Part shown: positions 6,144 through 50,547 of the stretch, piece after piece
Layout of the letters: each line of letters opens with the position of its first letter
How positions within the stretch are numbered: the stretch's first letter is position 1
Assembly (NCBI GenBank): GCA_012522575.1
Contig: JAAYKE010000028.1
Location: 575 to 64,574 of the forward strand
From: Armatimonadota bacterium
Lineage (GTDB): Bacteria; Armatimonadota; UBA5829
Reading direction: 5' to 3'
DNA length: 64,000 nt
Program-made: the position numbers and the translations under genes
The notes under the pieces: generated by a model
Databases searched by the model: none
Seen by the model: only the letters and a program-made list of their open reading frames with translations
What the model was told of the DNA's origin: nothing

Positions 6144-7130
6144 ATGGCGATTCTTGTAACCGGCGGGCTTGGCTATGTGGGAAGCCATGCGGTAAAACTT
6201 CTGGTGGATCGGGGCGAACAGGTCATTTGTCTCGACAACCTCATATTTGGCCACAAGCAATCCTCCAGCGGTAGCGAAGTGATAGTTGGTGACATCGGCG
6301 ACCAGGATTTGCTGCGCAAGATATTTTCCGCAAACAAAATCGATTCGGTAATGCATTTTGCGGCCTTTGCCGCTGTCGGGGAATCGGTGGAAAATCCCCA
6401 GAAATACTATCTTAATAATATCTCCAACAGCCTGGCTATGCTGCAGGTTATGCTGGAATTCGACGTCAAATTGATGATCTTTTCGTCCAGCGCGGCAACG
6501 TTCGGCGAGCCGGAAACGGTTCCCATTGTCGAGGAACATCCGCAAAATCCAACCAATCCGTATGGGCGATCAAAGCTCATGCTCGAACATATCCTCAAGG
6601 AATATGAGCACGCTTACGGGTTGAGGTCCATCTCGCTGAGATATTTTAATGCGGCGGGCGCGGATCCGTCCGGACTCATCGGGGAGGACCATACGCCGGA
6701 GCATCATCTCATTCCGCTGATCATTAAAGCCGCTATGGGTCAGAGGCCGCAGATCAATATCTTCGGCACAGATTGGCCTACGCCGGACGGGACTTGCATC
6801 AGAGACTACATCCACGTTACCGATCTTGCGCAGGCCCATGCCCTCGGCCTCGACGCACTTCGGCAGGGGAAGTCGACTACGGCCTACAACCTTGGCAACG
6901 GCAGCGGATATTCGGTGATGGAAGTCATCAAAATGGTTGAGAAGGTATCCGGCAGGCCGGTTAAGGCCGTTGCTGACGACCGCAGACCCGGCGACCCGGC
7001 TGTGCTAGTCGCCAGTTCCAAGAAGATCAGCGAGGAGTTGGGCTGGAAACCGAACTATCCGGAGCTTGAGACGATAGTTAAAAGTGCGTGGGAATGGCAC
7101 AGCGGACATCCTGATGGGTATGGAAAGTAA
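6144..7130 (+). CDS. galE: UDP-glucose 4-epimerase
   Basis: A Rossmann motif MAILVTGGLGYVGSH, the catalytic YGRSK motif (YxxxK), and 328 aa. Confidence 0.9.
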   Translation: MAILVTGGLGYVGSHAVKLLVDRGEQVICLDNLIFGHKQSSSGSEVIVGDIGDQDLLRKIFSANKIDSVMHFAAFAAVGESVENPQKYYLNNISNSLAMLQVMLEFDVKLMIFSSSAATFGEPETVPIVEEHPQNPTNPYGRSKLMLEHILKEYEHAYGLRSISLRYFNAAGADPSGLIGEDHTPEHHLIPLIIKAAMGQRPQINIFGTDWPTPDGTCIRDYIHVTDLAQAHALGLDALRQGKSTTAYNLGNGSGYSVMEVIKMVEKVSGRPVKAVADDRRPGDPAVLVASSKKISEELGWKPNYPELETIVKSAWEWHSGHPDGYGK

Positions 7131-18304: not shown

Positions 18305-19503
18305 CCGCGGATAGAGCGATAGTGATCGTTTTGGATTCAGTCGGTGTCGGAGCATTGCCTGACGCAGCGGATTATGGCGATTCAGGCTCCAACACTCTGG
18401 CACACGTTGCCGATGCAGTGGGAGGGCTTCATCTGCCCAACCTGGCAAAGCTGGGACTGGGTAATATTATCCCGATAAACGGAGTTATGGCTTCGAAAAA
18501 CCCTGCCGGATGCTTCGGAAAGATGGCGGAGTCGTCCGTAGGCAAAGATACGGCCACCGGGCATTGGGAGATGATGGGAGTTATCACCGCTCGCCCATTT
18601 CCCACATACCCGGACGGGTTCCCCGAAGAAATTATCCGAGAGTTCGAGTCCCGCATAGGTCGCGCCACCATAGGCAACAAAGCCTGCTCAGGAACCGTGA
18701 TTATCGCTGAATTGGGCGAAGAACACGTGCGCACCGCCAGGCCGATTGTATATACATCGGTCGACAGCGTGTTTCAGATCGCCTGTCACGAAGATGTGAT
18801 ACCCGTCGATGAGCTTTATGCGATGTGCGAGGTTGCAAGGTCGATTCTTGTGCCGCCAGACGACATCCAGCGCGTCATTGCACGGCCATTTACAGGCTCA
18901 CCGGGGTCTTATGTGCGAACAGCCGGGAGACGGGACTACGCCCTGCCTCCTCCGCACGACACCCTGCTGGACAGGATAACGCAATCCGGCGGAACTGTCA
19001 CAGGGATAGGCAAGATAGAGGATATATTTTCCGGCAGGGGAATAACCGAGTCCATACATACCGTCGATAATCAGTCCGGCGTTCAAACCACAATTGACGC
19101 TATCGAAAGCGGGCAGGGGACCTTGATTTTCACTAATCTTGTCGATTTCGATTCAGTCTACGGCCATCGTAACGATGCCGACGGCTACGCAAAGGCGTTG
19201 CAGGATTTTGATGACGCGCTTCCCCGCATCCTTACCTCTCTGCATAACGGCGACATTCTGATTATCACCGCAGACCACGGCTGTGACCCCACTATGCCCG
19301 GCACTGATCATTCTCGTGAATATGTTCCATTGCTGGTCTACGGCAAAGCAATTGGCTCCGGAATAGATATCGGGACCAGGTCCTGCTTCTGCGACCTTGC
19401 GGCAACCCTTGCCGAAGCGCTGGGCGTATCAGGCATAGCGTATGGCGAGAGCTTCGCCGATTTGCTCCGATTGCCGATCAATCAACCGGCGCATTTCCTA
19501 TGA
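18301..19503 (+). CDS. deoB: Phosphopentomutase
   Basis: MTADRAIVIVLDSVGVGALPDAADYGDSGSNTL..., 400 aa, with a metal-binding DHG motif near the C-terminus (ADHGCDPT). Confidence 0.9.
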   Translation: MTADRAIVIVLDSVGVGALPDAADYGDSGSNTLAHVADAVGGLHLPNLAKLGLGNIIPINGVMASKNPAGCFGKMAESSVGKDTATGHWEMMGVITARPFPTYPDGFPEEIIREFESRIGRATIGNKACSGTVIIAELGEEHVRTARPIVYTSVDSVFQIACHEDVIPVDELYAMCEVARSILVPPDDIQRVIARPFTGSPGSYVRTAGRRDYALPPPHDTLLDRITQSGGTVTGIGKIEDIFSGRGITESIHTVDNQSGVQTTIDAIESGQGTLIFTNLVDFDSVYGHRNDADGYAKALQDFDDALPRILTSLHNGDILIITADHGCDPTMPGTDHSREYVPLLVYGKAIGSGIDIGTRSCFCDLAATLAEALGVSGIAYGESFADLLRLPINQPAHFL

Positions 19504-19695
19504 TATCCGCGGCGACCTTTATTGGGTTCGTATTGTTGACTATTGCGCATGTGAGCTGTTTGGTGAAGGAATGTCGGGGAATTTAGGGAAGTGATCAATA
19601 TCAGAGCGGCTGCTGCGCTGTTTCATTTTGTCCATGATCCGGCGAGGCATACTGCGCTGGCAAAAAAACGAACTTACAATGGGAAACAGGGTCAA

Positions 19696-20577
19696 ATGGT
19701 GTTATTATTTTCTGTGATGTCTATTGCGCTTACAATTATGGTTCCGTCGACTCAAGCATCGGCGAAACCGAAGTCGTTCACTCTCTGGCAACTTCCGGAG
19801 CAGACCCACAGCCAGATGATGTCTTATGCCATCCGAACTGCGGGCGGCAAGCTAATCGTAATCGACGGCGGCACTGAAGGGGATGCGGATTATCTTAGGA
19901 AATTTATTGTAGAGCAGGGAGGGCACGTGGATGTGTGGTTTTTCACCCATCCTCACTCCGACCATGTTGGCGCGCCGATAGAGATTCTGAAAGACCCGAA
20001 GGGCATTACCGTCGATAAAATCTACGCCTCAAACCTGAAGGTGTCAGAAGTACAGAAATACGAACCCTCCTCGGCGCACACGCAGGCGGAAATCGATGCG
20101 GTGGTAAAAGAGACCAACCGCAGAATGATAGAGTTGACGCTCGGCGCAAAGCTAATCATCGACGGTGTCCATTTTGATATTCTGGGTATTAAGAACCCGG
20201 AGATTCACGCGAACTATATCAATAACTCCAGCATAGTCATGCGTGTATGGGACGCTGAAAAGTCGGTTATATTTCTTGGGGACCTCGGCCCTGAGGGCGG
20301 AAGCAAGCTGCTCGCAGGGCCTTATGGCAAAAAACTGAAGTCAGACTATTGCCAGATGGCGCATCATGGGCAGTCCGGAGTGCGCGGCGATGTATATCAG
20401 GCGATACAACCGAAATATTGCCTCTGGACGACACCCAAGTGGTTGTGGGAAAATGATCAGGGCGGAGGATATGATACCGGCCCGTGGACGACAATGGAAA
20501 CCCGAAAGTGGGCGGATGAACTACAGGTAAAACGCAACTATGCCACCTGGAAAGATGGGCTGGTAAAAATCGACTGA
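19696..20577 (+). CDS. Secreted MBL-fold metallo-hydrolase
   Basis: A signal peptide (MVLLFSVMSIALTIMVPSTQASA) and the metallo-beta-lactamase HxHxDH motif (FTHPHSDHVGA). Confidence 0.8.
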   Translation: MVLLFSVMSIALTIMVPSTQASAKPKSFTLWQLPEQTHSQMMSYAIRTAGGKLIVIDGGTEGDADYLRKFIVEQGGHVDVWFFTHPHSDHVGAPIEILKDPKGITVDKIYASNLKVSEVQKYEPSSAHTQAEIDAVVKETNRRMIELTLGAKLIIDGVHFDILGIKNPEIHANYINNSSIVMRVWDAEKSVIFLGDLGPEGGSKLLAGPYGKKLKSDYCQMAHHGQSGVRGDVYQAIQPKYCLWTTPKWLWENDQGGGYDTGPWTTMETRKWADELQVKRNYATWKDGLVKID

Positions 20578-20629
20578 TATTCCGGCTCAGTCGCGTCGTC
20601 TGTATATTAAGCATATAAGGTTAGGTAAT

Positions 20630-22474
20630 ATGACACAAAAAACCGATCAAAATACTGCGGTAGCGGAACACGATACGCAAAAAAAGAAAATCACCCTTAC
20701 TATTGACGGTCAGGCGCTGACTGTCCCGGAAGGCACAACGATAATGCAGGCCGCAAAGAAGCTGGCCATTCATATTCCGCATATATGCTATCACCCGCAG
20801 TTGCACCTCGAAGGCTCCTGCCGCGTATGTTTAGTCGAGGTCGAGGGGATGCGAAATCCGGTGCCGTCTTGCAGCTATCCCGTGTTCGAAGGGATGGTCG
20901 TTCATACAAATTCCCCGGAAATACGGGAGATTCGCGCAACGATTATCGAGTTGTTGCTGGCTAATCACCCTATGGATTGTCAGACTTGCGAGCGCGATGG
21001 CAACTGCGAACTGCAATACCTGGCCTATATTTCCGGCGCTCGTGAGCGGCCTTATGAGGGCGAAAAGAAGCACAACGAGAAGGATTTCAGCTACGTTTCG
21101 GTTGTCAGAGACCCGGACAAGTGCATCCTCTGCGGACGATGCGTGCGCGTGTGCGCCGAAGTGCAGGGCGTGTCGGCTTTGGGCTATATCCATCGCGGCT
21201 TCAAAACATTCGTTGGCCCGGCATATAATGGCCCGTTTGCAGAAAGCGTGTGCATCGCCTGCGGCCAGTGCATCAACGTCTGCCCGGTGGCAGCATTTTT
21301 GGAAAGAGACCACACAAAAGACGTTATGGCGGCAATCGCCGACCCTGACAAACACGTGATCGTTCAGATAGCTCCCAGCGTTCGAGCTTCCATTGGCGAG
21401 GGATTCAACATCGCACCGGGTCTGCCTATGACCGGCCAGGCGGTGGCGGCCCTGCGCAGGCTTGGGTTTGATGAGGTATTCGACACCCAGATGGGCGCGG
21501 ATGTTACGATTATGGAGGAGGGCACCGAATTCGTCAAACGGCTCAACGGCGAAGGCCCGCTTCCTCTCATCACCAGTTGTTCTTCTGCGTGGATGAAGTT
21601 CGCCGAGCATTTCTATCCGGATTTGCTTGAGAATATCTCCAGCGCAAAGTCCCCGATGAGCATGCTTGGCTCGCTGATCAAAACCTATTATGCCGAGCGC
21701 AAGGGGATCGATCCGTCAAATATATTTACCGTTGGCGCGATGTGTTGCACGGCCAAGAAGTTTGAGGCGGCAAGGCCGGAGCAGCAGCTTGACATCGACG
21801 GCCAGCTTATGCCCTCCATTGACCGCGTAATCACCACGCGTGAGCTGGTTTGGATGATCAAAAACGCGGGGTTGGATTTTGCTCAGTTGCCTGCCGAGGA
21901 TTTCGATCCTGTGCTTGGAATCTCGACAGGGGCCGGTGCGCTGTTCGGAGCCACGGGCGGCTTGGCTGAGGCGGTCTATCGCACAGCATATTATCTGCTC
22001 ACCGGCGAAACTCTGGCCGAAGTGGTCGTAGAGGAAGTTCGCGGCATTGCCAAAGGCATCAAAACCTGGATAGCGCATATCGGGGACAGGTCTATAAAGG
22101 TCGGCGTTGCCCATGGCCTGGGCAATGCGCACAAGCTTCTCGGAATGGTTCGCAGAGGTGAGGGTGATTTCCACTTCATCGAAATTATGGGTTGTCCGGG
22201 AGGATGTATCGGAGGGGGCGGCCAGCCATACGCAAGAGCGGGAGAAGCAATGCCGCTGGATATCGAGACGCTCAAAAAACGAGCCGAGGCGCTGCGGGCT
22301 ATTGATGCAGGCAAGACCCTCAAACGATCCTATGAAAACCCTGATGTTGTGCGGGTTTATAAAGAATATCTGGGTGAGCCGAACAGTGAGCTGGCGCATA
22401 AGTTGTTGCATACAAAATACAAACCGCGCCTGCCTTTGGGCGTATGGAACCCGGACGTGATGCGAAACGACTAA
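20630..22474 (+). CDS. hydA: [FeFe]-hydrogenase catalytic subunit, M3-type architecture (2Fe-2S + His-ligated 4Fe-4S + 2x[4Fe-4S] + H-domain) with non-canonical L1/L2 motifs
   Basis: An N-terminal CRVC...C Fer2, then HPMDCQTCERDGNC, then CILCGRCVRVC and CIACGQCINVCP, then an H-domain with ITSCSSAW (L1), AMCCTAKKFEA (L2) and EIMGCPGGCIGGGGQP (L3). Confidence 0.85.
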   Translation: MTQKTDQNTAVAEHDTQKKKITLTIDGQALTVPEGTTIMQAAKKLAIHIPHICYHPQLHLEGSCRVCLVEVEGMRNPVPSCSYPVFEGMVVHTNSPEIREIRATIIELLLANHPMDCQTCERDGNCELQYLAYISGARERPYEGEKKHNEKDFSYVSVVRDPDKCILCGRCVRVCAEVQGVSALGYIHRGFKTFVGPAYNGPFAESVCIACGQCINVCPVAAFLERDHTKDVMAAIADPDKHVIVQIAPSVRASIGEGFNIAPGLPMTGQAVAALRRLGFDEVFDTQMGADVTIMEEGTEFVKRLNGEGPLPLITSCSSAWMKFAEHFYPDLLENISSAKSPMSMLGSLIKTYYAERKGIDPSNIFTVGAMCCTAKKFEAARPEQQLDIDGQLMPSIDRVITTRELVWMIKNAGLDFAQLPAEDFDPVLGISTGAGALFGATGGLAEAVYRTAYYLLTGETLAEVVVEEVRGIAKGIKTWIAHIGDRSIKVGVAHGLGNAHKLLGMVRRGEGDFHFIEIMGCPGGCIGGGGQPYARAGEAMPLDIETLKKRAEALRAIDAGKTLKRSYENPDVVRVYKEYLGEPNSELAHKLLHTKYKPRLPLGVWNPDVMRND

Positions 22475-22502
22475 GCATCATTATCAGGACACTTAATTAA
22501 CT

Positions 22503-22531
22503 GGCCGGGGTCTGTCCCGGCCACACAAATT
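22503..22531. repeat. GC hairpin, a partial copy of the dispersed repeat head (ggccggg-gtctgtc-ccggcc acacaaa)
   Basis: A perfect 7-bp palindromic stem directly after the hydA stop. The same ggcYgg...ccRgcc-RCAC-RAAC head starts the repeat copies at 22646 and 41402. It may double as the hydA terminator. Confidence 0.45.
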
Positions 22532-22645
22532 TCCGAAAATCGCGAAAGCCCGAAATAAGCGAAACCCGGAAAAGGGAAGGGAAAAAGCAGATTCCTCGGC
22601 ATTCGCCTCGGAATGACAATTTACCTGACGCATTCAGGCGCAATG

Positions 22646-22850
22646 GCTGGGGTGCATATCCCGGCCACACGAACTATGTCATTTCGAATGAAGTGAGAAA
22701 TCTGATTTTTTCGATGTCCGATGTCCGAAGTTCGAGCCGGTATCGCAAGGGGGTGCGCCACCCATCGTACGAAATCTGCTTTTACGGGAAACCGCAAAAC
22801 CCTCACAATATGCCTTCTAACCTCTAACTTCCAACCTCTAACCTCTAAAA
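22646..22850. repeat. Dispersed intergenic repeat, copy A (hairpin head, ~95-nt conserved core, CYAACYTC-rich tail)
   Basis: The core cacgaactatgtcatttcgaatgaagtgagaaatctgattttttcgatgtccgatgtccgaagttcgagccggtatcgc is ~90% identical to 41421-41504. The tail ctaacctctaacttccaacctctaacctctaaa resembles 41520-41549. Confidence 0.65.
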
Positions 22851-23136
22851 AGTTTAGCTCGGAACCTATTGACTTCTCCTCATATCTGACGTACATTGCC
22901 ATAATGGGATTCGCATACAATTGATTGTGTGATTAATCGATGTATGCGCCAATAATCTTAATAAGGCGCCTCGGATTAACAAGCTGAACGTGTTATAAGC
23001 AAAGCGAACATTCTGCTTTATTGGCAACTTAAAGCAAGTTTTTGTTATGCCTCAACCAACTGGTAATCATTTTTAACCAAAGCGATTGCGAGTCTGTTGT
23101 TAGCTGTGGCGTTGAAATTCTTTGGGGGTAGTGCAA

Positions 23137-26100
23137 ATGACAATGCAGCGCGTTTTATTGTATGCGCTCTGCGCGGTTCTTCTCGTTTCTGGTTTTGCCT
23201 ATGCCGATTTGGCTAAAAAACCTCTCCCGTTTTCTAATGTGCAGCCGTGGGACTACGAACTAGGCCCGATATTTGAGGCTGCATCTGCCAGATATCAGGT
23301 GCCTTTGCCGTTGCTTTTGGCATTAGGCCACTTCGGCAGCGCCTTCGAGAACCGGGGAGATTCTCCGACTATCGAGGGCGGATATGGAGTGATGGCTCTT
23401 CGTCAGAATGATATGGGAGGCAATTCCCTGGCCGAGGCAGCAGCTCTTACGGGCGTATCCGAGGAAGACCTCAAAACCAATGCCGAGCTTAATATTATGG
23501 GCGCGGCTGCTGTTTTGGATGCTTATGCCAAGCAACTGCAGGTCGATCGGACCGCCGGTGTTGATGCGTGGCTTGATGTCATCATCAAATACGCGGCCAT
23601 AGACAAAATCGACGAAGATAATCCGGTTCCGGTGTTCAACCGGATGTTTGCAATGGAGGTATATCAAAAGTTGCAGGCCGGAGTCGATACGACGAACTCT
23701 ATGGGCGAGACGTTCAACGCCTCTGCTCAGAATATCGGCTCAATCGACCTTGCCTCACTTGAGCCACCCGGAATGAAAGCCAACGTCACCGGCTATTCAG
23801 GGGCCACATGGTATCCGGCTGCTACCTGCAATTATTCGGCTGTTAGCACAAATAAGAGCGTATTTGTCGTGCACACAATCGAAGGCACCGCATCGGGATG
23901 TCTGGGTTGGTTTAGAAACTGCGCCGCGGAGACATCCTGCCACTATGTTGCATCTGAGGCGGGAGGCATCTGGCAGTGCGTCGACGAATGGCACAGGGCG
24001 TGGCATGTAGGTTGCGCGAATAATTATTCCATCGGATGCGAGCACGAAGGTTACGCAGCATCAGCAAGCCACCCAAAGACTATGTACGATGCCTCTGCGC
24101 TGCTTGCGCGAGACGTCTGCAACAGATGGGGTATCCCCAAAACACACAATCCATGCCAGCATTCAATTCTTGGACACGTCGATGTGAACAACTGCTGGTG
24201 CGGCCCGGGTCACTGGGACCCTGGCGCGGGATGGGACTGGACATACTACATAAATGCCGTAAACGGCACGACTTATGTCAACCCTCCGTATCTGTTCGGG
24301 AGCGGTGCGGAAGGTTGGACAGCCGGCAACAGCGTGTGGTCCAACGGCCTTGTCCATACCGGCTCTGATTGGCGCGGGTCCATATATTTTGACCAGACAG
24401 GCCCGGACTGCTATATATACAGCCCTGAGACCAACTTCACTGGCTCATCTCCGCAGGTACTCAACGTTGACTTCTACCCGCAGGCCGGCACCGGCACAGA
24501 CCACGATATGCAACTGCACTGGAGGACCGCCGCGGAAGGCTCGTTCTCTGCCGACAAGGCCAGCCCGCTTACGGGTTATCAAGGTCAAAATACCTGGAGG
24601 ACGGTCAACCTCAGTATCAATAGCTCAAAATGGACGGGCCAGACAATCAAACAGCTCAGGCTCGACTTCGATAACAACAATCAATCGACCAGATACATCG
24701 TCAACCATGTTGTGCTGCAAAACGCGCTGATCTGGCCGTTTAACAGCGACGTAAACGGATGGACTGCCGGTCACTCGTTGACGGAGACCTGGCACACAGC
24801 CGGTGGCTGGCCGGGGTGTCTGGTTACGGATCAGACCGGCAACGACGCATATATATATAGTCCGACCCTTTCCGGCGCCGGCCTGCCGTACAACTACATA
24901 GGCGGCGTAAATGACTGGGTTAAGGTTCGGGTGTATCCGCAGAACAGTTCGGGTACGGCCCACGACCTGCGAGTATACTGGATATACGATGGCGACGGCG
25001 CCTGGAATGACACCAAATCCGTCCCTGTAACCTACACTGGCAAGAATGGGTGGGTCGATGTCTACGTCCCGGTTGGGCAAAGCACTTACTGGGAGGGCAA
25101 GCACATGACCCGGCTTCGAGTCGACTTCGACGAGGTCAGCCAGGGCACTCGCTGGATTGTCGACGAGATATCAATTGTGCAACTCGGCAAGGACTCCACC
25201 GCCCCGACAGTTCCGACCGGGCTGAATGCAACAGCCGTATCCGGCAGCATTGTCGATCTAAGCTGGACAGCATCGACTGACGCTACTGGAGTCAACGGAT
25301 ACAAGATATTCCGAAACGGAACCCAGATAGCCACCAGCATTTCACCGTCATACAGGGATACCTCCTGTCAGGCGCAGACGACCTATTCATATACTGTCAG
25401 CGCCTACGACTCGGTTGGCAACAACTCGGCCCAGAGCGCGGCCAAGAGCGTGACTACTCTGGCCCCTGACAATCAGCCGCCTACCGTGCCCGCAAATCTG
25501 CGCGTAACGGGGACTACAACGTCCAGCATCTCCCTTGCGTGGAATGCTTCGACGGACAATATAGGCGTGGTCGGCTATCGCATCTATCGCAACGGCGCTC
25601 AAGTCGGCACAGCCACCGGGACTACATACAATGACACCGGGTTGGCTCAGTATTCGACTCATACATACGAAGTCGATGCCTATGATGCCACTCCGAACTA
25701 TTCTGCCAAGAGCGCTTCGGTACTGGGGACAACAGTCGCACTGGTCTTCCAGGACGGCTTTGCGAACCTCAACAACTGGGTTCTTGATCCGGTTGCGGGC
25801 AATAACGTAATGCCCACGCTATCCACTGCTCAAAATCACGGCAGCATATCCGGCGCCAATTCGTTGTATTTTTCCGACGATGCTCCGCACTGGGTATATC
25901 ATGACTTCTCAGACGAGCTTACTTCCGGCGGCTACAGAGCGGGTATTCTCTCCGGCTGGATGTATGACAACGCCGTAAGCAACATGAGAATCGCCTTAAG
26001 AGCATATATGTATGATGCTGCCGGCAATGCCACGGGCATGTATTGGATTGGCGTGACGAACGGCAACCCGCCGAACATCCCGCTCAAATATATGGCCGCT

Positions 26101-27447
26101 GTGTATAATAGCGGTTGGCAATACTTCGACCTTGGCGATCGCACCGAGGGTTGGCATAGATTCGCAATCGAGGTTCTGCCATATACTGGCTCAAACGACC
26201 TCAAGTTCTATATAGATGGAGCTTTGAAGCTGACTACCAACCAGCCTCCTACTGCCGCCAGCTCGACTCTCAAGCGCACGTATCTGGGCTACAACTACAC
26301 GCCCAACCAGCCAACTTACTGGGATGATATTGTTCTGGAGTCAGTTCCTCCGCTTGCGCCGACAGGTGTTTCAGGCACAGCTTTGTCAACTTCTGCCATC
26401 AGGTGGAACTTCACCGACAAGGCCAACAACGAGATAGGCCATCGGGTCTACAACGGCGCTACCAAGGTAGCCCAGCGCGAGGAGTTCGATATCAATTTCG
26501 TCGATGAGACCGGCCTGGCAGCTAACACGACCTACAACCGAACGGTCAAGGCGTATGCGGGCATCCTTGAAAGCCACGCCGCTGCCGGCAGTGGAGTTAC
26601 GCTTTCGGTTCCGCCGAGCGTCTCTAATGTGACCTGTGACAAAGATACCAACACCTGGTATGCTGATGGCAACTTCACATTCACCGCAGTCGGCGGATTT
26701 GGCGCAGGCAAGGTGGATCATTATCAATTCGCGTGGACCAAACAGGCCACGCATACGTGGGCAGGTTCTGAAGCGAGTTGGTCGAGCGGAACTTTGGTTC
26801 AGACTGCGACATCTACGGGCGGTTGGTATCTGCACTTGCGAGGATTCAACTCCGCCAACGTAGCTAATGGCACTCTTGATCCTGGCCCGTTCAACTTCGA
26901 CAGCGACAGCGTTGCTCCGCAGATCAATTCTGTATCAGTGACGCCTTCTATGGTCGCCAGCGGGGATGCGGTTCACGTGACTGTCGATGCCACTGACAAC
27001 ATCGGCGTTACCAGCGTCAAGGCCAACGGCGTTTCTCTGACTAACTCCGGCGGCAACATCTGGACCGGTGACGTCGCTGCTTTGGGCGGCCTGGGCATCC
27101 ATGAGGTGAACATTGTCGCCGAGGACGCCGCAGGTAACACTGCGACCGATTCGTCCGGTTCTTATCTGACTGCCCTTATCCGTGGCGCTTCCAACAAGGC
27201 CGCCCTGGGAGTTGAGATGAACGCGGCTTGCGCTATATATCTCTTCAAGTTCTGGGGCAGGGTAGCAGAGGTCGATGACAATACATTCACCCTCGACGAT
27301 GGCTCCGGTTCGCCTATTACGGTGAACGCTTCCGGCTACAAGAGTGTGATATCGACAGGTGACTACGCGGCCGCTCGAGGTATGCTCAGCATATCAGGCA
27401 GCGACCGCGCCATTCAGAGCGAGGTTAGCTGGATAACTAAGTTCTAG
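23137..27447 (+). CDS. Giant secreted multidomain protein (1437 aa): signal peptide, degenerate lysozyme/SLT-like segment, Amidase_2 (PGRP-type N-acetylmuramoyl-L-alanine amidase), duplicated ~140-aa beta-rich module, 2x FN3, LamG/ConA-like, FN3-like/Ig-like, and a C-terminal OB-fold-like module
   Basis: The Amidase_2 pattern is VVHTIEG...SCHYVAS...AWHVGCANNYSIGCEHEG...GHVDVNNCWCGPGHWDPG. The FN3 pattern is LSWTASTDATGVNGYKIFRNG...YSYTVSAYD. The C-terminus reads LFKFWGRVAEVDDNTFTLDDGSGSPITV. The start was chosen at ATG 23137, which follows the ggggg RBS (the ORF-track TTG is at 23122). Confidence 0.85.
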   Translation: MTMQRVLLYALCAVLLVSGFAYADLAKKPLPFSNVQPWDYELGPIFEAASARYQVPLPLLLALGHFGSAFENRGDSPTIEGGYGVMALRQNDMGGNSLAEAAALTGVSEEDLKTNAELNIMGAAAVLDAYAKQLQVDRTAGVDAWLDVIIKYAAIDKIDEDNPVPVFNRMFAMEVYQKLQAGVDTTNSMGETFNASAQNIGSIDLASLEPPGMKANVTGYSGATWYPAATCNYSAVSTNKSVFVVHTIEGTASGCLGWFRNCAAETSCHYVASEAGGIWQCVDEWHRAWHVGCANNYSIGCEHEGYAASASHPKTMYDASALLARDVCNRWGIPKTHNPCQHSILGHVDVNNCWCGPGHWDPGAGWDWTYYINAVNGTTYVNPPYLFGSGAEGWTAGNSVWSNGLVHTGSDWRGSIYFDQTGPDCYIYSPETNFTGSSPQVLNVDFYPQAGTGTDHDMQLHWRTAAEGSFSADKASPLTGYQGQNTWRTVNLSINSSKWTGQTIKQLRLDFDNNNQSTRYIVNHVVLQNALIWPFNSDVNGWTAGHSLTETWHTAGGWPGCLVTDQTGNDAYIYSPTLSGAGLPYNYIGGVNDWVKVRVYPQNSSGTAHDLRVYWIYDGDGAWNDTKSVPVTYTGKNGWVDVYVPVGQSTYWEGKHMTRLRVDFDEVSQGTRWIVDEISIVQLGKDSTAPTVPTGLNATAVSGSIVDLSWTASTDATGVNGYKIFRNGTQIATSISPSYRDTSCQAQTTYSYTVSAYDSVGNNSAQSAAKSVTTLAPDNQPPTVPANLRVTGTTTSSISLAWNASTDNIGVVGYRIYRNGAQVGTATGTTYNDTGLAQYSTHTYEVDAYDATPNYSAKSASVLGTTVALVFQDGFANLNNWVLDPVAGNNVMPTLSTAQNHGSISGANSLYFSDDAPHWVYHDFSDELTSGGYRAGILSGWMYDNAVSNMRIALRAYMYDAAGNATGMYWIGVTNGNPPNIPLKYMAAVYNSGWQYFDLGDRTEGWHRFAIEVLPYTGSNDLKFYIDGALKLTTNQPPTAASSTLKRTYLGYNYTPNQPTYWDDIVLESVPPLAPTGVSGTALSTSAIRWNFTDKANNEIGHRVYNGATKVAQREEFDINFVDETGLAANTTYNRTVKAYAGILESHAAAGSGVTLSVPPSVSNVTCDKDTNTWYADGNFTFTAVGGFGAGKVDHYQFAWTKQATHTWAGSEASWSSGTLVQTATSTGGWYLHLRGFNSANVANGTLDPGPFNFDSDSVAPQINSVSVTPSMVASGDAVHVTVDATDNIGVTSVKANGVSLTNSGGNIWTGDVAALGGLGIHEVNIVAEDAAGNTATDSSGSYLTALIRGASNKAALGVEMNAACAIYLFKFWGRVAEVDDNTFTLDDGSGSPITVNASGYKSVISTGDYAAARGMLSISGSDRAIQSEVSWITKF

Positions 27448-27690: not shown

Positions 27691-30600
27691 ATGAGACGGT
27701 TACAAGCAAGACTTGTTTTACTTTTTTGCGTAGTATTACTTACAGTATTTGCGGTCACGGCGCTGCAGGCCAGCGTGGTGGCCGTTCGTTTTTATGCACA
27801 CGGGGATCTCACTGCGGTCAATCGAGCAGTATCCAATGATGTTGCGGCTGCCGAGGCGGCAGTGCGTGCATTGGTTGCAGGGCCATTTGTGGAAGAGAGC
27901 GCGGTAGGCATCTATTCCCAAATCCCGGCTGGAACTAAAATCAAGAAGCTATCGATAGCGGGCAGCGCTGCGGAGATCGATCTCTCTTCAGAGATTCTGA
28001 CCGGCCTGGATGAAGAGAAATTGACCGACATCTTCAACCAGTTCCGCTCCACTGCCGGCGATTTTCCATCCATTACCTCAATCAAACTCACCTGTAATGG
28101 CAAGATTCTGTCTTCATATCTGCCCTCCGCTCCCGATATTGGAGAGCCTGCGCCGCCACTGATCAAGGGCAATGCGGTTGGCCTGAGCGGCAAGTATATC
28201 TGCGTTGGGCCATCGCATGGTCGCTTCTGGAACGGCAGCGGCTGGTATTGGCAGCGCTCTGACCCATGCGGGCTCGGCGAAGCCATTCTGGAGGACACCA
28301 ACAGCATCAGGCTGGTTCAGTATTTGAAGCAGTATGTTACTCAGGACAGCGGGATATTTGCCAGCGCGAGGGAGTTGGATGAAAGCAAATGCTGCCATCC
28401 CAGTACCGGTTTGGCCTGGTGGAAAATGTGTTCACAGTCGTATTTGCGCAATGCCGGCGTGCCCTGTTCCGTATGGGCGAGCTACACAGGCAACTGCGGC
28501 GCGGATAATGCTGCAGGCCGCAGCAGTGATGATATTCGCTGCAGACCTCTCTACGCGGACTGGCTGGGTTATCATATCTACATCGCCATGCACACCAACG
28601 CTGGCGGAGGAACCGGTACCGAGACTTTCTATGATGCAGCGATGGAAAAACCGGCCCACGTTACCAACAGCTATAACCTGGCCAACGCTGTAAATAATGG
28701 AATGGTCAACACCATCCGCAACACTTTCCCCGGCGAGTCGGGCTGGGCTAACAGAGGTGTCAAGAATGGGAACGGCGCCTACGGCGAAATTCGCATTCCC
28801 AACCGACCTGCAATCCTCGTTGAGTTGGGTTTCCACGACCATTGCACAAGGGATGCCGTCTACCTGACAAACGACTTCTTCCGTTCGGTCGCTATGTGGG
28901 GAGCTTACAGCGGGATCTGTGCATACTTCGGCAACACTCCGACCTGGGGCAAATATTCCTGCGAACTTGTCTCAAACACAATTCCATCCACAATGACCAC
29001 AGGCCAGACCTACAGCGCGACTATCACCTACCGCAACCGCGGCGTGGTCTGGATGAGCGCATATAACTTCAAGGTTGGCGCAGTATCAGCCAACGACCCT
29101 CTGATGACTACTCGGCTTTATCCCGTTTCCGGAACGATCAAGCCGGGCAGCAACGCAACTTTCACAATTTCCCTGAAGGCTCCGGCTACCGCAGGGACCT
29201 ATACCACCCAGTGGCAGATGATTCGTGAAGGTTACGAGTGGTTCGGTCCAACGCTTACGAAAAGCGTCACCGTCGTTGCTGCTACCGGCAACATCACCGG
29301 CACAGTTCGCAACGCTGCCGACAACAGCGTTATTTCGGGCGCAACAGTGGCGGTAACAGGCGGTTCATCGGCGACAACAAACGCCTCTGGAGTATACACA
29401 ATCAGCGGCGTCAATCCCGGAACATACACGCTTACTGTAAGCAGGACTGATTTTGTTACACAAACTGCGTCCGTTTCAGTGACCGCAGGAGCGACAACCA
29501 CCAAAGACTTCTCACTGCTGTCGTCTCTTCCTCCGACCGGCGCTATAAAGATCAACGCCGACGCCGAGTATACCAACAACTCCGCAGTGACACTGACCCT
29601 ATCCTCGCCGGATGCTGTTCAGATGCAGTTCAAAAACGAATCTGGTGACTGGAGCGCGTGGGAGAATTATGCGGCGACAAAGGCGTGGAACCTGAGCGCT
29701 GATGACGGCACAAAGACTGTCTTCGTTAAGTATAAGAGCGCCGCCAACATTGAATCCACTGCCACAATCAGCGCCACAATAGTCCTTGATACCACTCCGC
29801 CCACCGGCGCTCTTGAGATCAATTCAAACGCACAATACACCAATGCCGTGGGTGTGACGCTTACGCCATCATCGTCAGACGCCGCTCAGATGCAGTTCAA
29901 AAACGAATCCGGCGATTGGAGTGTGTGGGAGACTTACGCGACTGCCAAGGCCTGGTCTATTACGGCGGGCGATGGGACAAAAACAGTCTATGCCAGGTTC
30001 AAAGATGTTGCCGGCAACGTATCTACTGATACCATCAGCGCAACAATCACCCTCGACATAGTGCCTCCGACAGGCGCTATGGTCATCAATTCAGATGACA
30101 TCTACGCAAACTCCACATCCGTTATATTGACGTTGTCATCTCCGGATGCAGCTCAAATGCAGTTCAAAAACGAGTCGGGTTCCTGGAGCGCGTGGGAAGC
30201 CTATGCCACTAGCGCATCTTGGACTATGAGCGCTGGTGACGGTACAAAAACCGTATTCGTGCAGTTCAAAGACGCTGCGGGCAATGTATCCACTGGTACA
30301 ATTAGTGACAATATAATTCTGGACACAGTTCCGCCAACAGGCTCTATCGTTATCAATAGTCACGCCATATACGCTGTTGATGCAGATGTAACATTGGCTC
30401 TGTCTTCGCCGGATGCGGTTCAGATGCAGTTCAAAAACGACTCTGGCGAATGGAGTGCGTGGGAGAACTATGCCACCAGTAAGGCGTGGACCTTGAGCGC
30501 CGATGACGGGACAAAAACTGTCTATGTCCAGTTCAAAGACATCGCAGGCAACGTCTCCGTTGACACGATAAGCGACACCATAATTCTTGACACCACCCCG

Positions 30601-33078
30601 CCTACCGGCGCTTTGGTTATAAACTCAGGCGCGCAATACACCAACAGCCAGGCGGCGACTCTGACCCTGTCCTCTACGGATGCGGCTCAGATGCAGTTCA
30701 AGAACGAGTCCGGCCCGTGGACAGCCTGGGAGACCTACGCCACGAGCAAGCCCTGGACACTCAGTTCGGTCGACGGGGTGAAAACAGTATTCGTTCGATT
30801 TAAGGACGAAGCAGGCAATGTCACTACTGAGACAATCAGCGCCGACATAACCCTGGACACAGTTCCGCCGACTGGCGCAATAGAGATCAACGGCGGCGCT
30901 AACTATACCAATAACCAGTCGGTCACTCTCGCCCTGTCATCAGCAGATGCCGTTCAGATGCGATTCAAAAACGAGAATGGCGCGTGGAGCGAATGGGAGA
31001 CCTACTCTGCGACCAGGTCGTGGACGCTGAGCGCAGGCGAAGGCGTAAAAACTGTTACCGTTCAGTATAAAGATGCGGCGGGCAACGTCTCTGTTGGAGT
31101 AATAAGCGACTCTATAATCTTCGACATCACCCCGCCCACCGGCTCGATATTGATCAATTCCGGCAATGCCTACGCCAATAACCAGTCGGTCACTCTCACA
31201 CTGTCATCTCCGGATGCGGCTCAGATGCAGTTCAAGAACGAGACTGGTGATTGGAGCGAATGGCAGACCTATTCGACTGCCAAAGCCTGGACTCTGACCG
31301 GCGGCGAGGGAACTAAGACCGTCAGCGTCCGGTTCAAGGACGAGGCTGGCAACGTATCTGTCGGTGTGATCAGCGATACCATCATATTGGACACCATTCC
31401 GCCTACAGGCACAATCGTCATCAACGACGATGCAGTCTATTCCAACACTCTGACCGTTGACTTGGCCCTGTTCTCGGCAGACGCCGTGCAGATGCGATTC
31501 AAGAACGAGGTTGGCCTGTGGAGTGAATGGGAAGCCTACGCACAGACCAAAGAATGGGATCTTCGCACCGGCGACGGTCTAAAGACTGTTTACGTTGAAT
31601 ATATGGACATAGCCGGCAATACGTCCGGTGAATCCGTCAGCGACACTATCACCCTGGTCACAGTTCCTCCGTCGATCAACAGCGTGACTTCACCTGCTCT
31701 TACAAACAAGCAGCCGATCGCGGTCGATTACAACGTCTCCGAGGGCATCTGCGGCCTGAAGAAGGTCACGCTGTGGGCGAAGAAAGGCTCAGGCGGAAAC
31801 TGGACCAACACGGGTATGACTTCAACTAACCCAAGTGGTTACTTTAACTATATGCCCGATGGCGATGCGACTTACTACTTCGACATAGTAGTAGAAGATA
31901 TTGCCAACAACGTTTCCCAGACACCAGTCGGCGGCGGTCGAACCAGCACAAATTATGACGTCACTTCGCCGACCGGCACGATTCTCATCAACGGAGGCGC
32001 ACTCTACGCCAACAATGTATGGGTCACTCTGACGCTTTCGTCAGCAGATGCCTATCAGATGAGATTCAAAAACGAGTCAAGCTCTTGGGGAAGCTGGGAG
32101 TTCTACTCCACAACCAGGGTCTGGTCGCTGAGTTCCGGCGACGGCGTCAAGACCGTCTATGTTCAGTTCAGAGATGAAGCAGGCAACGTCTCTCTCAACA
32201 GAATCAGTGACGTAATTCTGGACACCACTCCGCCCACTGGCACTATCACAATCAACGGCGGAGCGATGTACACCAACAGCACATCCGTCACGCTTACTAT
32301 GTCTGCGTCGGATGCTGTCCAGATGCGCTTTAAGAACGAGACCGGTTCATGGACGTCCTGGGAAGCTTATGCGACCAGTAAGCAGTGGACCTTAAGCTCA
32401 GGTGATGGCCTCAAGACTGTCTATGTGCAGTTTATGGATATCGCGGGCAACGCCTCTTCGTCGAGGATCAGCGATATAATCCTTGATACCACACCTCCGA
32501 GCATATCCATAGGCTCTCCTTCCGTTGCGTCAACTACCAGCGGCCCTGTGACCTATCAAATCAACTTCACCGGAGCCAATGCGGTTACGCTGTCGGCTGC
32601 TGGTGTCGTTTTGAATACTACAGGCTCCGCAAACGCCGGCTCAGTGGCAGTGAGCGGATCCGGCACGGCCAGTCGATTAGTGACTCTGTCCGATATAACC
32701 GGCAGCGGCGCGATCGGTATCTCCATCGTGGCTGGAGCAGCCAGCGATATTGCCGGCAACCTGTCGCCTGGCGTCGGCCCTGGAGCCACTTTCGATGTGT
32801 TGAACGTGCTCCATTCCTACGGCTTAAGTAACAAGGCGGCCTGGGATCCGATTATTAAAACCGCATCGTACAACCAGTTGTTTACGATTTGGGGCAGGGT
32901 TATCTCTCCGGTGGACGACAACAGCTTCGAGATCGATGACGGCTCCGGTATGCCCATAAAGGTTATGCTTTCCGGCCACGGGTTTAGCACTGCTGACTAT
33001 GTTTCGGTGACGGGTTCTCTCGATGTCAGCGGACCTGCGCCGGTTATGAATGCTATATCGGTGAATAAACAAAACTGA
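27691..33078 (+). CDS. Giant secreted multidomain protein (1795 aa): signal peptide, GerMN/Gmad2-like N-domain (tentative), Amidase_3 (MurNAc-L-Ala amidase), 10 tandem ~90-aa Ig-like repeats with one unrelated inserted domain, and a C-terminal OB-fold-like module shared with the upstream giant protein
   Basis: The Amidase_3 pattern is ICVGPSHG...YIAMHTNAGGGTGTETFY...NRPAILVELGFHDH. The repeat unit is PPTGAIxINxxAxYTNxxxVTLTLSSPDAxQMQFKNESGxWSxWExYATxKxWxLSxGDGTKTVxVxFKDxAGNVS. The C-terminus reads LFTIWGRVISPVDDNSFEIDDGSGMPIKV. A strong RBS (aaggtggggg) precedes the ATG at 27691. Confidence 0.85.
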   Translation: MRRLQARLVLLFCVVLLTVFAVTALQASVVAVRFYAHGDLTAVNRAVSNDVAAAEAAVRALVAGPFVEESAVGIYSQIPAGTKIKKLSIAGSAAEIDLSSEILTGLDEEKLTDIFNQFRSTAGDFPSITSIKLTCNGKILSSYLPSAPDIGEPAPPLIKGNAVGLSGKYICVGPSHGRFWNGSGWYWQRSDPCGLGEAILEDTNSIRLVQYLKQYVTQDSGIFASARELDESKCCHPSTGLAWWKMCSQSYLRNAGVPCSVWASYTGNCGADNAAGRSSDDIRCRPLYADWLGYHIYIAMHTNAGGGTGTETFYDAAMEKPAHVTNSYNLANAVNNGMVNTIRNTFPGESGWANRGVKNGNGAYGEIRIPNRPAILVELGFHDHCTRDAVYLTNDFFRSVAMWGAYSGICAYFGNTPTWGKYSCELVSNTIPSTMTTGQTYSATITYRNRGVVWMSAYNFKVGAVSANDPLMTTRLYPVSGTIKPGSNATFTISLKAPATAGTYTTQWQMIREGYEWFGPTLTKSVTVVAATGNITGTVRNAADNSVISGATVAVTGGSSATTNASGVYTISGVNPGTYTLTVSRTDFVTQTASVSVTAGATTTKDFSLLSSLPPTGAIKINADAEYTNNSAVTLTLSSPDAVQMQFKNESGDWSAWENYAATKAWNLSADDGTKTVFVKYKSAANIESTATISATIVLDTTPPTGALEINSNAQYTNAVGVTLTPSSSDAAQMQFKNESGDWSVWETYATAKAWSITAGDGTKTVYARFKDVAGNVSTDTISATITLDIVPPTGAMVINSDDIYANSTSVILTLSSPDAAQMQFKNESGSWSAWEAYATSASWTMSAGDGTKTVFVQFKDAAGNVSTGTISDNIILDTVPPTGSIVINSHAIYAVDADVTLALSSPDAVQMQFKNDSGEWSAWENYATSKAWTLSADDGTKTVYVQFKDIAGNVSVDTISDTIILDTTPPTGALVINSGAQYTNSQAATLTLSSTDAAQMQFKNESGPWTAWETYATSKPWTLSSVDGVKTVFVRFKDEAGNVTTETISADITLDTVPPTGAIEINGGANYTNNQSVTLALSSADAVQMRFKNENGAWSEWETYSATRSWTLSAGEGVKTVTVQYKDAAGNVSVGVISDSIIFDITPPTGSILINSGNAYANNQSVTLTLSSPDAAQMQFKNETGDWSEWQTYSTAKAWTLTGGEGTKTVSVRFKDEAGNVSVGVISDTIILDTIPPTGTIVINDDAVYSNTLTVDLALFSADAVQMRFKNEVGLWSEWEAYAQTKEWDLRTGDGLKTVYVEYMDIAGNTSGESVSDTITLVTVPPSINSVTSPALTNKQPIAVDYNVSEGICGLKKVTLWAKKGSGGNWTNTGMTSTNPSGYFNYMPDGDATYYFDIVVEDIANNVSQTPVGGGRTSTNYDVTSPTGTILINGGALYANNVWVTLTLSSADAYQMRFKNESSSWGSWEFYSTTRVWSLSSGDGVKTVYVQFRDEAGNVSLNRISDVILDTTPPTGTITINGGAMYTNSTSVTLTMSASDAVQMRFKNETGSWTSWEAYATSKQWTLSSGDGLKTVYVQFMDIAGNASSSRISDIILDTTPPSISIGSPSVASTTSGPVTYQINFTGANAVTLSAAGVVLNTTGSANAGSVAVSGSGTASRLVTLSDITGSGAIGISIVAGAASDIAGNLSPGVGPGATFDVLNVLHSYGLSNKAAWDPIIKTASYNQLFTIWGRVISPVDDNSFEIDDGSGMPIKVMLSGHGFSTADYVSVTGSLDVSGPAPVMNAISVNKQN
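29530..32490 (+). repeat. Coding tandem repeat array: 8 consecutive ~270-273-bp units (29530-31660), then 2 more (31962-32490) after a ~300-bp unrelated insert
   Basis: Units begin with cc(t/g)ccgac(c/a)ggc and share the conserved core gatgc(g/t)g(c/t)tcagatgcagttcaa(a/g)aacga. By eye, nucleotide identity between units is ~80-85 percent. Confidence 0.85.
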
Positions 33079-41253: not shown

Positions 41254-41398
41254 CGCCGCCAATGCCCCGCAAATGTCGTCACTGTTATGGTTGAGCGCTC
41301 CCTCGGCAAGGGTATTTATAAACCAAAGGGTAATTAACCGTTTCAAGTGAAAATAGAGGCGTAATATAGTATCAACTCACTCTTCGTGAGTGGTTGAA

Positions 41399-41577
41399 GT
41401 GGCTGGTCTCTGTCCCAGCCGCACAAACTATGTCATTTCGAACGAAGTGAGAAATCTGCTTTTTTCGATATCCGAGGTCAGATGTCCGAAGTTCGAGCCG
41501 GTATCGCCAAACCATACCCAAGCTCTAACCTCCAACTTCTAACCTCTAAACCGTAGTGGCTGGTCTCTGTCCCAGCC
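41399..41577. repeat. Dispersed intergenic repeat, copy B, bounded by a 22-bp direct repeat (gtggctggtctctgtcccagcc at 41399 and again at 41556)
   Basis: The head hairpin ggctgg-tctctgtc-ccagcc, the core 41421-41504 (~90 percent identical to 22665-22748), and the tail ctaacctccaacttctaacctctaaa. Confidence 0.65.
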
Positions 41578-41689
41578 AGATAATCTATCAACGAACACCT
41601 GCTGTCCGAGACGGAGATCGGACACTACGGGCAGGATTGCTCATCATTCGTGAGCTGTTACGTAATATATCTTAAAATTGGCTGGTGAT

Positions 41690-42183: not shown

Positions 42184-43227
42184 TTGGTTCAAATGCGCAT
42201 CTGCAACGATCCGGACTTCGACAATCTGCTTGCCGTGCTGCGGCGAGAAAAACCTTCGCGTCCCACTCTCTTCGAATTCTTTCTCAACGAAGCTCTATAC
42301 CGCAGGATAGCAGGCGTCGGCGCAGAAGATGAGCTTGACGGCCACGACCACGCACGGATGCTGCTGGCGGCGTTTATGCGAGCGGGATACGATTATGTCA
42401 CTTTATACGGGTCGGATTTGACATTTCCGGCAGGCGATATCGAACAAATGGCAAGCCGCTCCCTTGACCATTGTCCGATTATCTTCGACAGGGATTCATA
42501 TCAGGCGTATCAGTGGCCGGACCCTGCATCGTTCAGTTACTCCAGACTCGATGTAATAGGCGCACAACTGCCTCGGGGAATGAAAATAGTCGTCTGCGGG
42601 CCGGGCGGAGTGCTCGAAAATGTGATGCAGTTGGTCGGCTTCGAAGGCATTTGCCTGATGATGGCTGACGATCCTGATCTTGTCGAGAAGATTTTTGCCG
42701 AGGTCGGATCGAGATTGGTCGAATACTACCGAGTTGCAGCTAGTCATCCTGCAGTCGGCGCGCTGATCTCAAACGACGACTGGGGCTTCAGCGCGCAGAC
42801 CATGCTCAGTCCGGCCGATATGCGTCGATATGTGTTTTTGTGGCACGAGCGCATCGTTCAAGTGATACACGATGCGCAAAAGCCCGCGATTTTGCATTCA
42901 TGCGGCAATCTCGAATCCGTTATGGACGATATAATCGATGTTATGAAATACGACGCCAAGCACTCGTATGAGGACAAGATATGCCCTGTCGAGGAGGCAT
43001 ACGAACGCTGGGGAGACCGAATCGCGATCCTTGGCGGAATAGATTTGGACTTCGTCTGCCGATCCAAACCTGATAAAATAACCCAAAGGGCGCAGGCTAT
43101 GCTAGATCGCGCCGCAAACCGAGGCAGCTACGCGCTCGGCTCCGGCAACTCCATACCATATTATGTGCCCGACGATAACTACTTTGCTCTTATCGAACCC
43201 GTAGTCGCCCTGCGGAGGCATTTGTGA
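42184..43227 (+). CDS. Uroporphyrinogen-decarboxylase (URO-D)/MtaA-like family protein of unknown substrate
   Basis: 347 aa with a URO-D-like TIM barrel pattern (...KPAILHSCGNLESVMDDIIDV...ILGGIDLDF...). It is not in a heme biosynthesis context. Confidence 0.75.
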   Translation: MVQMRICNDPDFDNLLAVLRREKPSRPTLFEFFLNEALYRRIAGVGAEDELDGHDHARMLLAAFMRAGYDYVTLYGSDLTFPAGDIEQMASRSLDHCPIIFDRDSYQAYQWPDPASFSYSRLDVIGAQLPRGMKIVVCGPGGVLENVMQLVGFEGICLMMADDPDLVEKIFAEVGSRLVEYYRVAASHPAVGALISNDDWGFSAQTMLSPADMRRYVFLWHERIVQVIHDAQKPAILHSCGNLESVMDDIIDVMKYDAKHSYEDKICPVEEAYERWGDRIAILGGIDLDFVCRSKPDKITQRAQAMLDRAANRGSYALGSGNSIPYYVPDDNYFALIEPVVALRRHL

Positions 43228-43232
43228 GGGAT

Positions 43233-44771: not shown

Positions 44772-44779
44772 GCATACAA

Positions 44780-46493: not shown

Positions 46494-46495
46494 AT

Positions 46496-47263: not shown

Positions 47264-47380
47264 ACTATACTCTCTGCTCCGTCATATTGGCCGATATGTT
47301 GCGGTCTGCGTTTTTCGCGTCATATCGAACTAAATAGATATATATTTTCCTCTAATTGCAATTTGAAGCTGCTGATAATC

Positions 47381-48301: not shown

Positions 48302-48423
48302 CTGATTTCATTTAAGGGTTGTCAACCGGTATTATCGGCAGTTATATGTCGAAACGTGAGTGCAAATCGGCCTTGACGTTGACGGCCTACAGACCTATAC
48401 TAACCCCGTAGTGGAGGAACATA

Positions 48424-50490: not shown

Positions 50491-50547
50491 ATAAACCGGG
50501 CTGCGGATTGCCGCGAGCCGCATACTTATAACTAATTGGAGGAAGAC

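Follow-up and report, generated by a model that had tools for sequence, protein, structure and literature searches.

The [4Fe-4S]H cubane of the H-cluster is the point at which electrons enter the [FeFe]-hydrogenases, which are the fastest known H2 catalysts. The ligands of the cubane affect both maturation and catalytic bias. In the HydABC complex of Acetobacterium woodii, one of the cubane cysteine ligands is replaced by Ser301, and the enzyme is active with an apparently unaffected Fourier-transform infrared signature (PMC10021017). Serine occupies this ligand position in roughly 20% of putative hydrogenase sequences, yet the engineered C115S variant of the algal CrHydA1 loses both cluster and activity (Kertess et al., PMC5855289). 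A survey of Hydrogenedentota likewise describes the P1 motif as xTSCxPxW, with Ser common at its fifth position in group A3 (PMC11406978). As natural serine enzymes are active while the engineered variant is dead, the natural ones must contain compensating, context-dependent changes, and what makes a serine workable in so many natural enzymes when it is fatal in the algal model matters for hydrogenase engineering. Here we describe the hydrogenase gene hydA of an Armatimonadota bacterium (lineage UBA5829), found in a stretch of 64,000 nucleotides of contig JAAYKE010000028.1 (positions 575 to 64,574), hereafter the window, to which all nucleotide positions refer. The clade to which its product belongs is a natural experiment, combining an invariant serine and an invariant extra cysteine beside a cubane ligand with the loss of the two flanking prolines. 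The gene, its F-domain and its three H-cluster motifs are listed below, with equivalent residues given in the numbering of CpI, the reference monomeric M3 enzyme from Clostridium pasteurianum.

20630 to 22474, plus strand: hydA, catalytic subunit of an M3-type [FeFe]-hydrogenase (HydA/HndD type), 614 aa, identified from its open reading frame (ORF) and from Pfam, NCBIfam and PDB matches.
20684 to 21349, plus strand: F-domain with one [2Fe-2S] site, one His-ligated [4Fe-4S] site (H113, C117, C120, C126) and two ferredoxin-type [4Fe-4S] sites, from Pfam and the alignment to CpI.
21572 to 21592, plus strand: motif L1/P1, TSCSSAW (T315 to W321), with C317 as Cys299, S318 (nucleotides 21581-21583) at the ligand position and S319 in place of Pro301.
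21740 to 21760, plus strand: motif L2/P2, MCCTAKK (M371 to K377), with C372 (nucleotides 21743-21745) in place of Pro354, C373 as Cys355 and K376 as K358.
22181 to 22228, plus strand: motif L3/P3, EIMGCPGGCIGGGGQP, with M520 as M497, G521 as A498, C522 as C499 and C526 as C503, the bridging cysteine.

The CpI-numbered global alignment equates C317, S318, S319, C372, C373, C522 and C526 of HydA with C299, C300, P301, P354, C355, C499 and C503, respectively. An earlier reading made from the sequence alone (the sequence-only reading) had aligned the H-domain to CpI by eye, and both phmmer and the global alignment reproduced that register. The span to which it had assigned the unusual motifs, 21572-21748, begins precisely at the T of L1 and closes with the second C of L2. 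Its proposals that the Cys300-type cubane ligand is lost, that the proton-relay Cys299 is kept and that a new cysteine stands at the Pro354 position were borne out by S318, C317 and C372. Residues 224-325 of HydA align without gaps to residues 206-307 of CpI in phmmer, and the L1 region is gap-free for about 100 residues on either side against the CpI, Thermoanaerobacter kivui HydA1 and A. woodii HydA1 chains. S318 aligns with Ser301 of A. woodii, and the numbering reproduces the published A. woodii Ser301 and T. kivui Cys299. Compared with the strict L1 motif TSCCPxW, the relay cysteine is kept, while the ligand cysteine and the proline are both replaced by serine. This strict motif is an unreliable criterion for membership, because A. 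woodii HydA1, an accepted member, has the same ligand replacement. In L2, MCCTAKKFE retains the M, the ligand C, the K and the E of MPCxxKxxE and has C for P. L3 fits the consensus ExMxCxxGCxxGGGQP and is canonical, as had been read from the sequence.

The remainder of the active site is conserved. The proton pathway of CpI (C299, E279, S319, E282 and R286) is intact as C317, E297, S337, E300 and R304. Of the residues lining the H-cluster pocket, A248-P249-S250, M371, K376, F439 and M520 are kept (A230-P231-S232, M353, K358, F417 and M497 in CpI), as is P342. The sequence-only reading had also set these changes apart from those of the sensory groups C and D, which carry PAS or signalling domains and have a disrupted proton pathway or a lost relay cysteine. 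We agree, since the pathway is conserved here and Pfam found no PAS or other signalling domain in HydA.

We regard hydA as a bona fide HydABC/Hnd-type gene under selection. Its translation, which holds LPLITSCSSAWMKF, VGAMCCTAKKFEA and FIEIMGCPGGCIGGGGQP, has Pfam matches to Fer2_4 (residues 19-95), to NADH-G_4Fe-4S_3 (102-140) and to Fer4 domains that represent the two ferredoxin-type sites; H113, C117, C120 and C126, the ligands of the distal cluster, align with H94, C98, C101 and C107 of CpI. The H-domain matches the full profile (1-245) of Fe_hyd_lg_C (PF02906; residues 241-530, E-value 1.1e-85), followed by Fe_hyd_SSU (PF02256; residues 546-600, E-value 4.5e-21). HydA scores above the cut-off of TIGR02512 (462 versus 406 bits) and matches the full profile (1-571) of NCBIfam NF040763, 'NADH-dependent [FeFe] hydrogenase, group A6', with 783.8 bits (cut-off 765). 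It scores below the cut-offs of the NCBIfam clostridial monomer model (565 versus 900 bits) and of TIGR04105 (170 versus 450 bits), and its L1, TSCSS, is not the TSCCCP of group B. The top phmmer match among PDB chains is 7q4v_A, A. woodii HydA1 (1.4e-174), and the best fold match of the AlphaFold2 (AF2) model is 7q4w_A; confidence in the model is high for most of the H-domain, with block means mostly between 85 and 97 over residues 230-430 and 480-520. The ratio of nonsynonymous to synonymous substitutions (dN/dS) is about 0.02, at near-saturated synonymous sites, in comparisons with two 92%-identical relatives (L001 and L010; L numbers denote genome loci of relatives and P numbers database proteins). 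Rfam and promoter/terminator scans of 19400-23300 yielded nothing meaningful. Taken with the arguments given below, HydA is probably part of a multimeric, flavin-linked group A hydrogenase of an Armatimonadota lineage (group A3 in HydDB; 'group A6' in NCBIfam).

Among characterised enzymes, A. woodii HydA1 (7Q4V, 7Q4W, 8A5E) shares the M3 architecture, the Cys-to-Ser exchange at the cubane ligand and the proton pathway with HydA, and the HydB and HydC partners of the electron-bifurcating A. woodii HydABC(D) are of the types found with HydA's relatives. However, the two proteins are only about 49% identical, and A. woodii HydA1 has TSCSPGW and MPC with both prolines, no extra cysteine and A498 rather than glycine. 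The A. woodii genes form one operon, whereas hydA lies apart from hydB here. The canonical bifurcating HydABC enzymes of T. kivui and Thermotoga maritima (8A6T, 7P5H) resemble HydA in family, architecture and partners, but T. kivui HydA1 has the all-cysteine combination TSCCP/MPC. CpI (4XDC, 3C8Y) has the same domain order and pocket residues but retains Cys300, Pro301 and Pro354, and is a monomeric, ferredoxin-dependent enzyme. The likeness to the NAD(P)-linked Hnd (HndABCD) of Desulfovibrio fructosovorans is one of annotation and gene order, several clade members being annotated as 'HndD' by the Joint Genome Institute (JGI). Extra cysteines beside motif cysteines are also found in the group B TSCCCP enzymes CpIII and ToHydA (bioRxiv 10.1101/2023.06.23.541094, 10.1101/2025.03.17.643706), but these have the additional cysteine in L1, four Cys ligands and another domain structure, and belong to a different phylogenetic group. 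The C115S, C170S and C362S variants of CrHydA1, of which C115S corresponds to Ser318, provide an experimental model of serine at cubane-ligand positions.

We determined how widespread the motif combination is using the best 120 database clusters as homologues, which are 59-100% identical to HydA. All 120 have Ser300, Cys354 and Gly498, so S318 and C372 are invariant, while the residue following Ser300 is S in 116, A in three and P in one. The pairing that the sequence-only reading had proposed for a database survey is thus present as TSCS[S/A/P] with MCC throughout. The clade comprises at least 120 sequence clusters from several phyla, its named members being Armatimonadota, Sedimentisphaerales/Phycisphaerae including the cultured Anaerobaca lacustris, and one Bacillota metagenome-assembled genome (MAG) labelled Firmicutes. 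Among 150 representatives at 50% identity, 83 have TSCCP/MPC, about 20 have TSCSP/MPC and a single one, P0122, has TSCSA/MCC. P0122 stands for HydA's clade and is the only representative with MCC in this set. Nearly all of 29 more distant genome loci have TSCSP/MPC.

In the phylogeny that had been called for, the MCC sequences formed one clade in 200 of 200 neighbour-joining (NJ) bootstraps with the motif columns masked, nested among TSCSP/MPC sequences. Monophyly of Ser300 was not recovered in any of the 200 NJ bootstraps. Repeated switching between Ser and Cys at position 300, or poor resolution of the deep nodes, would account for this. The sequence of P0068, which combines TSCSP with MCC, suggests that C300S came first, P354C next and the loss of P301 last. 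An extra cysteine immediately before a cubane ligand (position 354 or 498) was found in 6 of 40 Ser300 sequences and in 1 of 99 with Cys300 (Fisher p = 0.002, phylogeny ignored). Besides MCC in L2, such cysteines occur in L3 as E[IV]MCC (E[IV]MCCxGGC, with the extra cysteine at CpI 498) in L017, L018, P0127, P0134 and P0192, as well as in P0270. Five of these six have a Ser300 background (TSCSP or SSCSP), and those five share no more than 54% pairwise identity. The L3 change may parallel that in L2.

The lost ligand itself was less unusual than the sequence-only reading implied. Serine at this position is found in about a fifth of sequences, is common in group A3 and occurs in the characterised A. 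woodii HydA1, which reduces the interest of this part of the variant. It had also been considered that the motif pair might belong to a known, characterised subgroup; this applies to the serine, known from an active enzyme, but the MCC change seems to be undescribed. We found no mention of MCCTAKK, CCTAKK or TSCSS in the hydrogenase literature. Cysteine at the Pro354 position together with the loss of Pro301 seems to be an uncharacterised motif variant of a sizeable and taxonomically broad clade, with Cys372 apparently undescribed.

Two database proteins had unusual architectures. P0122 is a natural fusion of 773 aa that joins a TSCSA/MCC-type HydA to a C-terminal HydC-like, thioredoxin-type [2Fe-2S] domain. 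P0121, with a predicted length of 4122 aa, contains seven H-domains with TSCCA[SG]W, MPCTVKK and EIMMCxGGC, six of which recur at an exact period of 444 residues. It could be a tandem multi-hydrogenase polyprotein, or else an artefact of gene calling or assembly.

We next looked at the genes that would encode the partners of HydA. Searches with tblastn found no hydB, hydC, hydD, hydE or hydG in the window, and motif scans found no radical-SAM, HydF or NuoF signatures in its real ORFs, in agreement with the sequence-only reading that maturases and partner subunits are missing from it. Likewise, hydB, hydC and hydD are absent within 10 kb of hydA in L001, L010, L014 and L033. On the 3.05-Mb contig of a 92%-identical relative, about 100 kb separate hydD-hydB from hydA, and neither hydA nor hydC stands beside hydD-hydB. 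A block in the window corresponds to the genes that precede hydD-hydB in this relative.

42944 to 51527, plus strand: block collinear with the genes directly upstream of hydD-hydB in the 92%-identical relative (L052), from blastn and blastp.

The collinear block (L052 1-9205) comprises about eight genes, among them those for an FGGY kinase, a ROK protein, an ABC transporter, a GH42 protein and a 333-aa protein. Collinearity ends at 51527, exactly where hydD-hydB would start, and is followed by an oppositely oriented apt/mtnA/MTAP cluster. Position 51527 thus marks a break in synteny where hydD-hydB would be expected. Of the three samples holding the exact HydA, two also contain a hydB that is 90% identical to that of the relative, mirroring the 92% identity of HydA. 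From this co-occurrence we infer that the host species keeps hydB elsewhere and that its operon is scattered. The description of hydA as solitary therefore holds in so far as the window contains no hyd partners, but it reflects a derived gene order rather than orphanhood, as indicated by the operons of relatives and by hydB in the same samples.

In less derived relatives the genes are together. Anaerobaca lacustris has the order hydD-like, hydB, hydA, hydG, hydC, hydE, and hydB-hydA-hydC is the order both in the Bacillota MAG and in a 65%-identical Armatimonadota genome. Over all loci, hydB and hydC stand beside hydA in L002-L004, L006-L009, L011-L013, L039, L045, L046 and L051, and tblastn placed them on its flanks in the majority of Armatimonadota loci. 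In two long-read MAGs of the MFD series, hydA is split into two overlapping frames (L038 9992-11787, L039 10115-11606), most likely through assembly indel errors rather than as pseudogenes. GGPSG, two C-terminal [4Fe-4S] clusters and an N-terminal [2Fe-2S] cluster have been proposed as marks of bifurcating beta-subunits (PMC7311640). The HydB partners of relatives have an N-terminal [2Fe-2S] domain, GGPSG and, at the C-terminus, two ferredoxin motifs, and from these marks the complex may have NAD(P)H-linked or bifurcating activity. A small conserved protein of 112-119 aa is encoded ahead of hydB in several loci (L046 7337-7696, L045 7826-8182, L052 9329-9667). It has a GxATC motif and no Pfam match at E <= 1e-4, and is HydD/HndB-like by position. 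As for the maturases, Anaerobaca HydG as a database query matched Planctomycetota sequences only and none from Armatimonadota. The longest contigs of HydG clusters have the same size as those of at least six MCC-type HydA clusters.

The explanation that we prefer, and consider rather more probable than all others, is that HydA has a normal H-cluster with an oxygen ligand from Ser318, to which Cys372 and Ser319 are a second-shell change, and partners that are encoded elsewhere. H2 would be made or split at this H-cluster, with C317 relaying protons through E297, S337, E300 and R304. The cubane would be held by C373, C522 and the bridging C526 plus the oxygen of Ser318, as described for Ser301 of A. 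woodii. Cys372 and Ser319, strictly conserved and specific to the clade, are each adjacent to a ligand and would most likely adapt the second shell to a serine-ligated cubane by packing, hydrogen bonding or tuning of the potential, Cys372 not being a permanent fourth ligand. HydB and HydC would receive the electrons by way of the F-domain clusters, and the species would encode both subunits elsewhere following the scattering of an ancestral hydD-hydB-hydA-hydC operon. A second-shell role is supported by the invariance of Ser318 next to a residue that varies between S, A and P, and by A. woodii HydA1, which does without an extra cysteine. In the AF2 model, residue 372 sits between two cluster-facing residues at the end of strand 365-371, ahead of helix 375-381. 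Several points weigh against this explanation. Serine ligation is extrapolated from a cryo-electron microscopy model of a homologue, and engineered Cys-to-Ser exchange abolishes cluster binding in CrHydA1, which makes Cys372 a candidate compensating change. The enrichment of extra cysteines with Ser300 hints at a functional link stronger than packing. Additionally, hydC, hydD and hydEFG of the host species were not located in the window scans or the HydG database search, and co-occurrence of hydB in samples is no proof that it belongs to the same genome. The failure of the engineered exchange and the enrichment of extra cysteines lend some weight to a different arrangement, which we regard as unlikely but worth serious attention: the vicinal Cys372 and Cys373 might both ligate the cubane, Cys372 taking over the Fe lost by Cys300 either permanently or depending on redox state, with Ser318 turned into a hydrogen-bond donor. 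Tandem-cysteine ligation has a precedent in cluster N2 of respiratory complex I. Cys372 is invariant in all 120 clusters and arose only in a Ser300 background; a separate Ser300 class has its extra cysteine before the other ligand, in L3; and the intolerance of CrHydA1 to C115S shows that some compensation is needed. Still, A. woodii HydA1 is active with a serine ligand and, like most TSCSP/MPC enzymes, has no extra cysteine. If freed from ligand duty, Ser318 would not be expected to stay invariant beside a drifting neighbour, and the enrichment test ignores phylogenetic non-independence. Judging from the strand-then-coil geometry of the AF2 model, residue 372, between the cluster-facing M371 and C373, would ordinarily point away from the cluster, and tandem ligation would strain the backbone that holds M371 and K376. 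The wider form of this idea, that the TSCS[S/A]/MCC clade has rewired its first coordination sphere, with Cys372 and Cys373 binding two cubane Fe and the same solution reached separately at L3, strikes us as slightly less likely again. If true, the clade would provide the first natural case of a relocated cubane ligand in an [FeFe]-hydrogenase, probably with a shifted cubane potential or catalytic bias. If Cys372 either ligates or tunes the cubane, the clade points to residues for transplanting into serine-ligated or otherwise ligated designs; if it does neither, HydA is another well-conserved member of the HydABC family.

Other explanations question whether HydA works in a complex, whether it works at all or whether the motifs are real. 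Parted from hydB and hydC, HydA could act alone as a CpI-like, ferredoxin-dependent hydrogenase, which would suit its M3 architecture, identical to that of monomeric CpI, the lack of partner genes in the window and around hydA in four relatives, and the strong purifying selection on hydA in this separated arrangement. We think this improbable. The 92%-identical relative keeps hydD-hydB on the same contig as hydA, a 90%-identical hydB co-occurs with HydA in samples, hydA is flanked by hydB and hydC in all less derived relatives, and HydA passes the multimeric model NF040763 while failing the clostridial monomer model. With scattered hyd genes, the lack of neighbouring hydBC is no sign of a monomeric enzyme. 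That HydA is instead an inactive paralogue, a sensory hydrogenase or a pseudogene that assembles no H-cluster has very little probability, even though one canonical cubane ligand is gone and the window has no maturase genes. A pseudogene or inactive paralogue is rejected by the intact frame, the dN/dS of 0.02 and the conserved catalytic residues, and a sensory hydrogenase by the intact proton pathway and the absence of PAS or other signalling domains; the equivalents of K358, M353 and M497 are kept, unlike in the sensory groups. Moreover, the same serine is present in the active A. woodii enzyme, and hydG and hydE adjoin the MCC-type hydA in Anaerobaca. We see next to no chance that a register shift, frameshift or assembly error produced the apparent TSCSS and MCC. 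No alignment offset yields a cysteine at position 300 and the alignments are gap-free through L1, which rules out a register shift. The identical HydA protein is encoded on three independent assemblies, whose DNA is about 98% identical to the window and which have the same genes upstream. Together with the gap-free alignments to PDB chains and the motifs in 120 of 120 homologues, this already refutes an artefact of alignment or sequence.

The intergenic regions and genes flanking hydA have features of their own.

19591 to 20577, plus strand: metallo-beta-lactamase (MBL)-fold gene with a signal-peptide-like N-terminus, from a Lactamase_B match.
22501 to 22860, no strand assigned: region 3' of hydA with the GC-rich hairpin GGCCGGGGTCTGTCCCGGCC (approximately 22503-22522), followed by dispersed intergenic repeat copies.

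The Lactamase_B match agrees with the MBL hydrolase that the sequence-only reading had placed upstream of hydA. Within this sub-lineage, L001, L010 and L033 retain the MBL-hydA pair, and the MBL protein is 67-77% identical in these three loci and L002. In L002, hydB and hydA have the MBL gene (6163-7050) between them, an arrangement that resembles an intermediate stage. No functional link of the MBL gene to the hydrogenase was evident.

Downstream of hydA, nucleotides 22530-22636 share 92% identity with the 107 nt that directly precede hydB in the same species (L056 52-158), and 22659-22849 matches 41413-41550 in the window. Short-read contigs L048 and L049 end inside the repeats at 22567. The repeats border the scattered hyd genes and may have brought the rearrangements about. 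Members of the dispersed repeat family were located at 22501-22860 and 41398-41661 in the window, at L056 1-275 and at L052 4351-4899. A related genome has a tandem array of 9.7 copies of 57 bp built on the same hairpin, GGCTGGTCTCTGTCCCAGCC. No tRNA was found in the conserved 77-nt stretch at 41.55 kb. Directly downstream of hydA, 23122-27447 and 27691-33078 encode two large secreted proteins of 1441 and 1795 aa. Both have N-acetylmuramoyl-L-alanine amidase domains together with fn3, Ig-like and carboxypeptidase-regulatory repeats, and they occupy the same position in L001 and L010.

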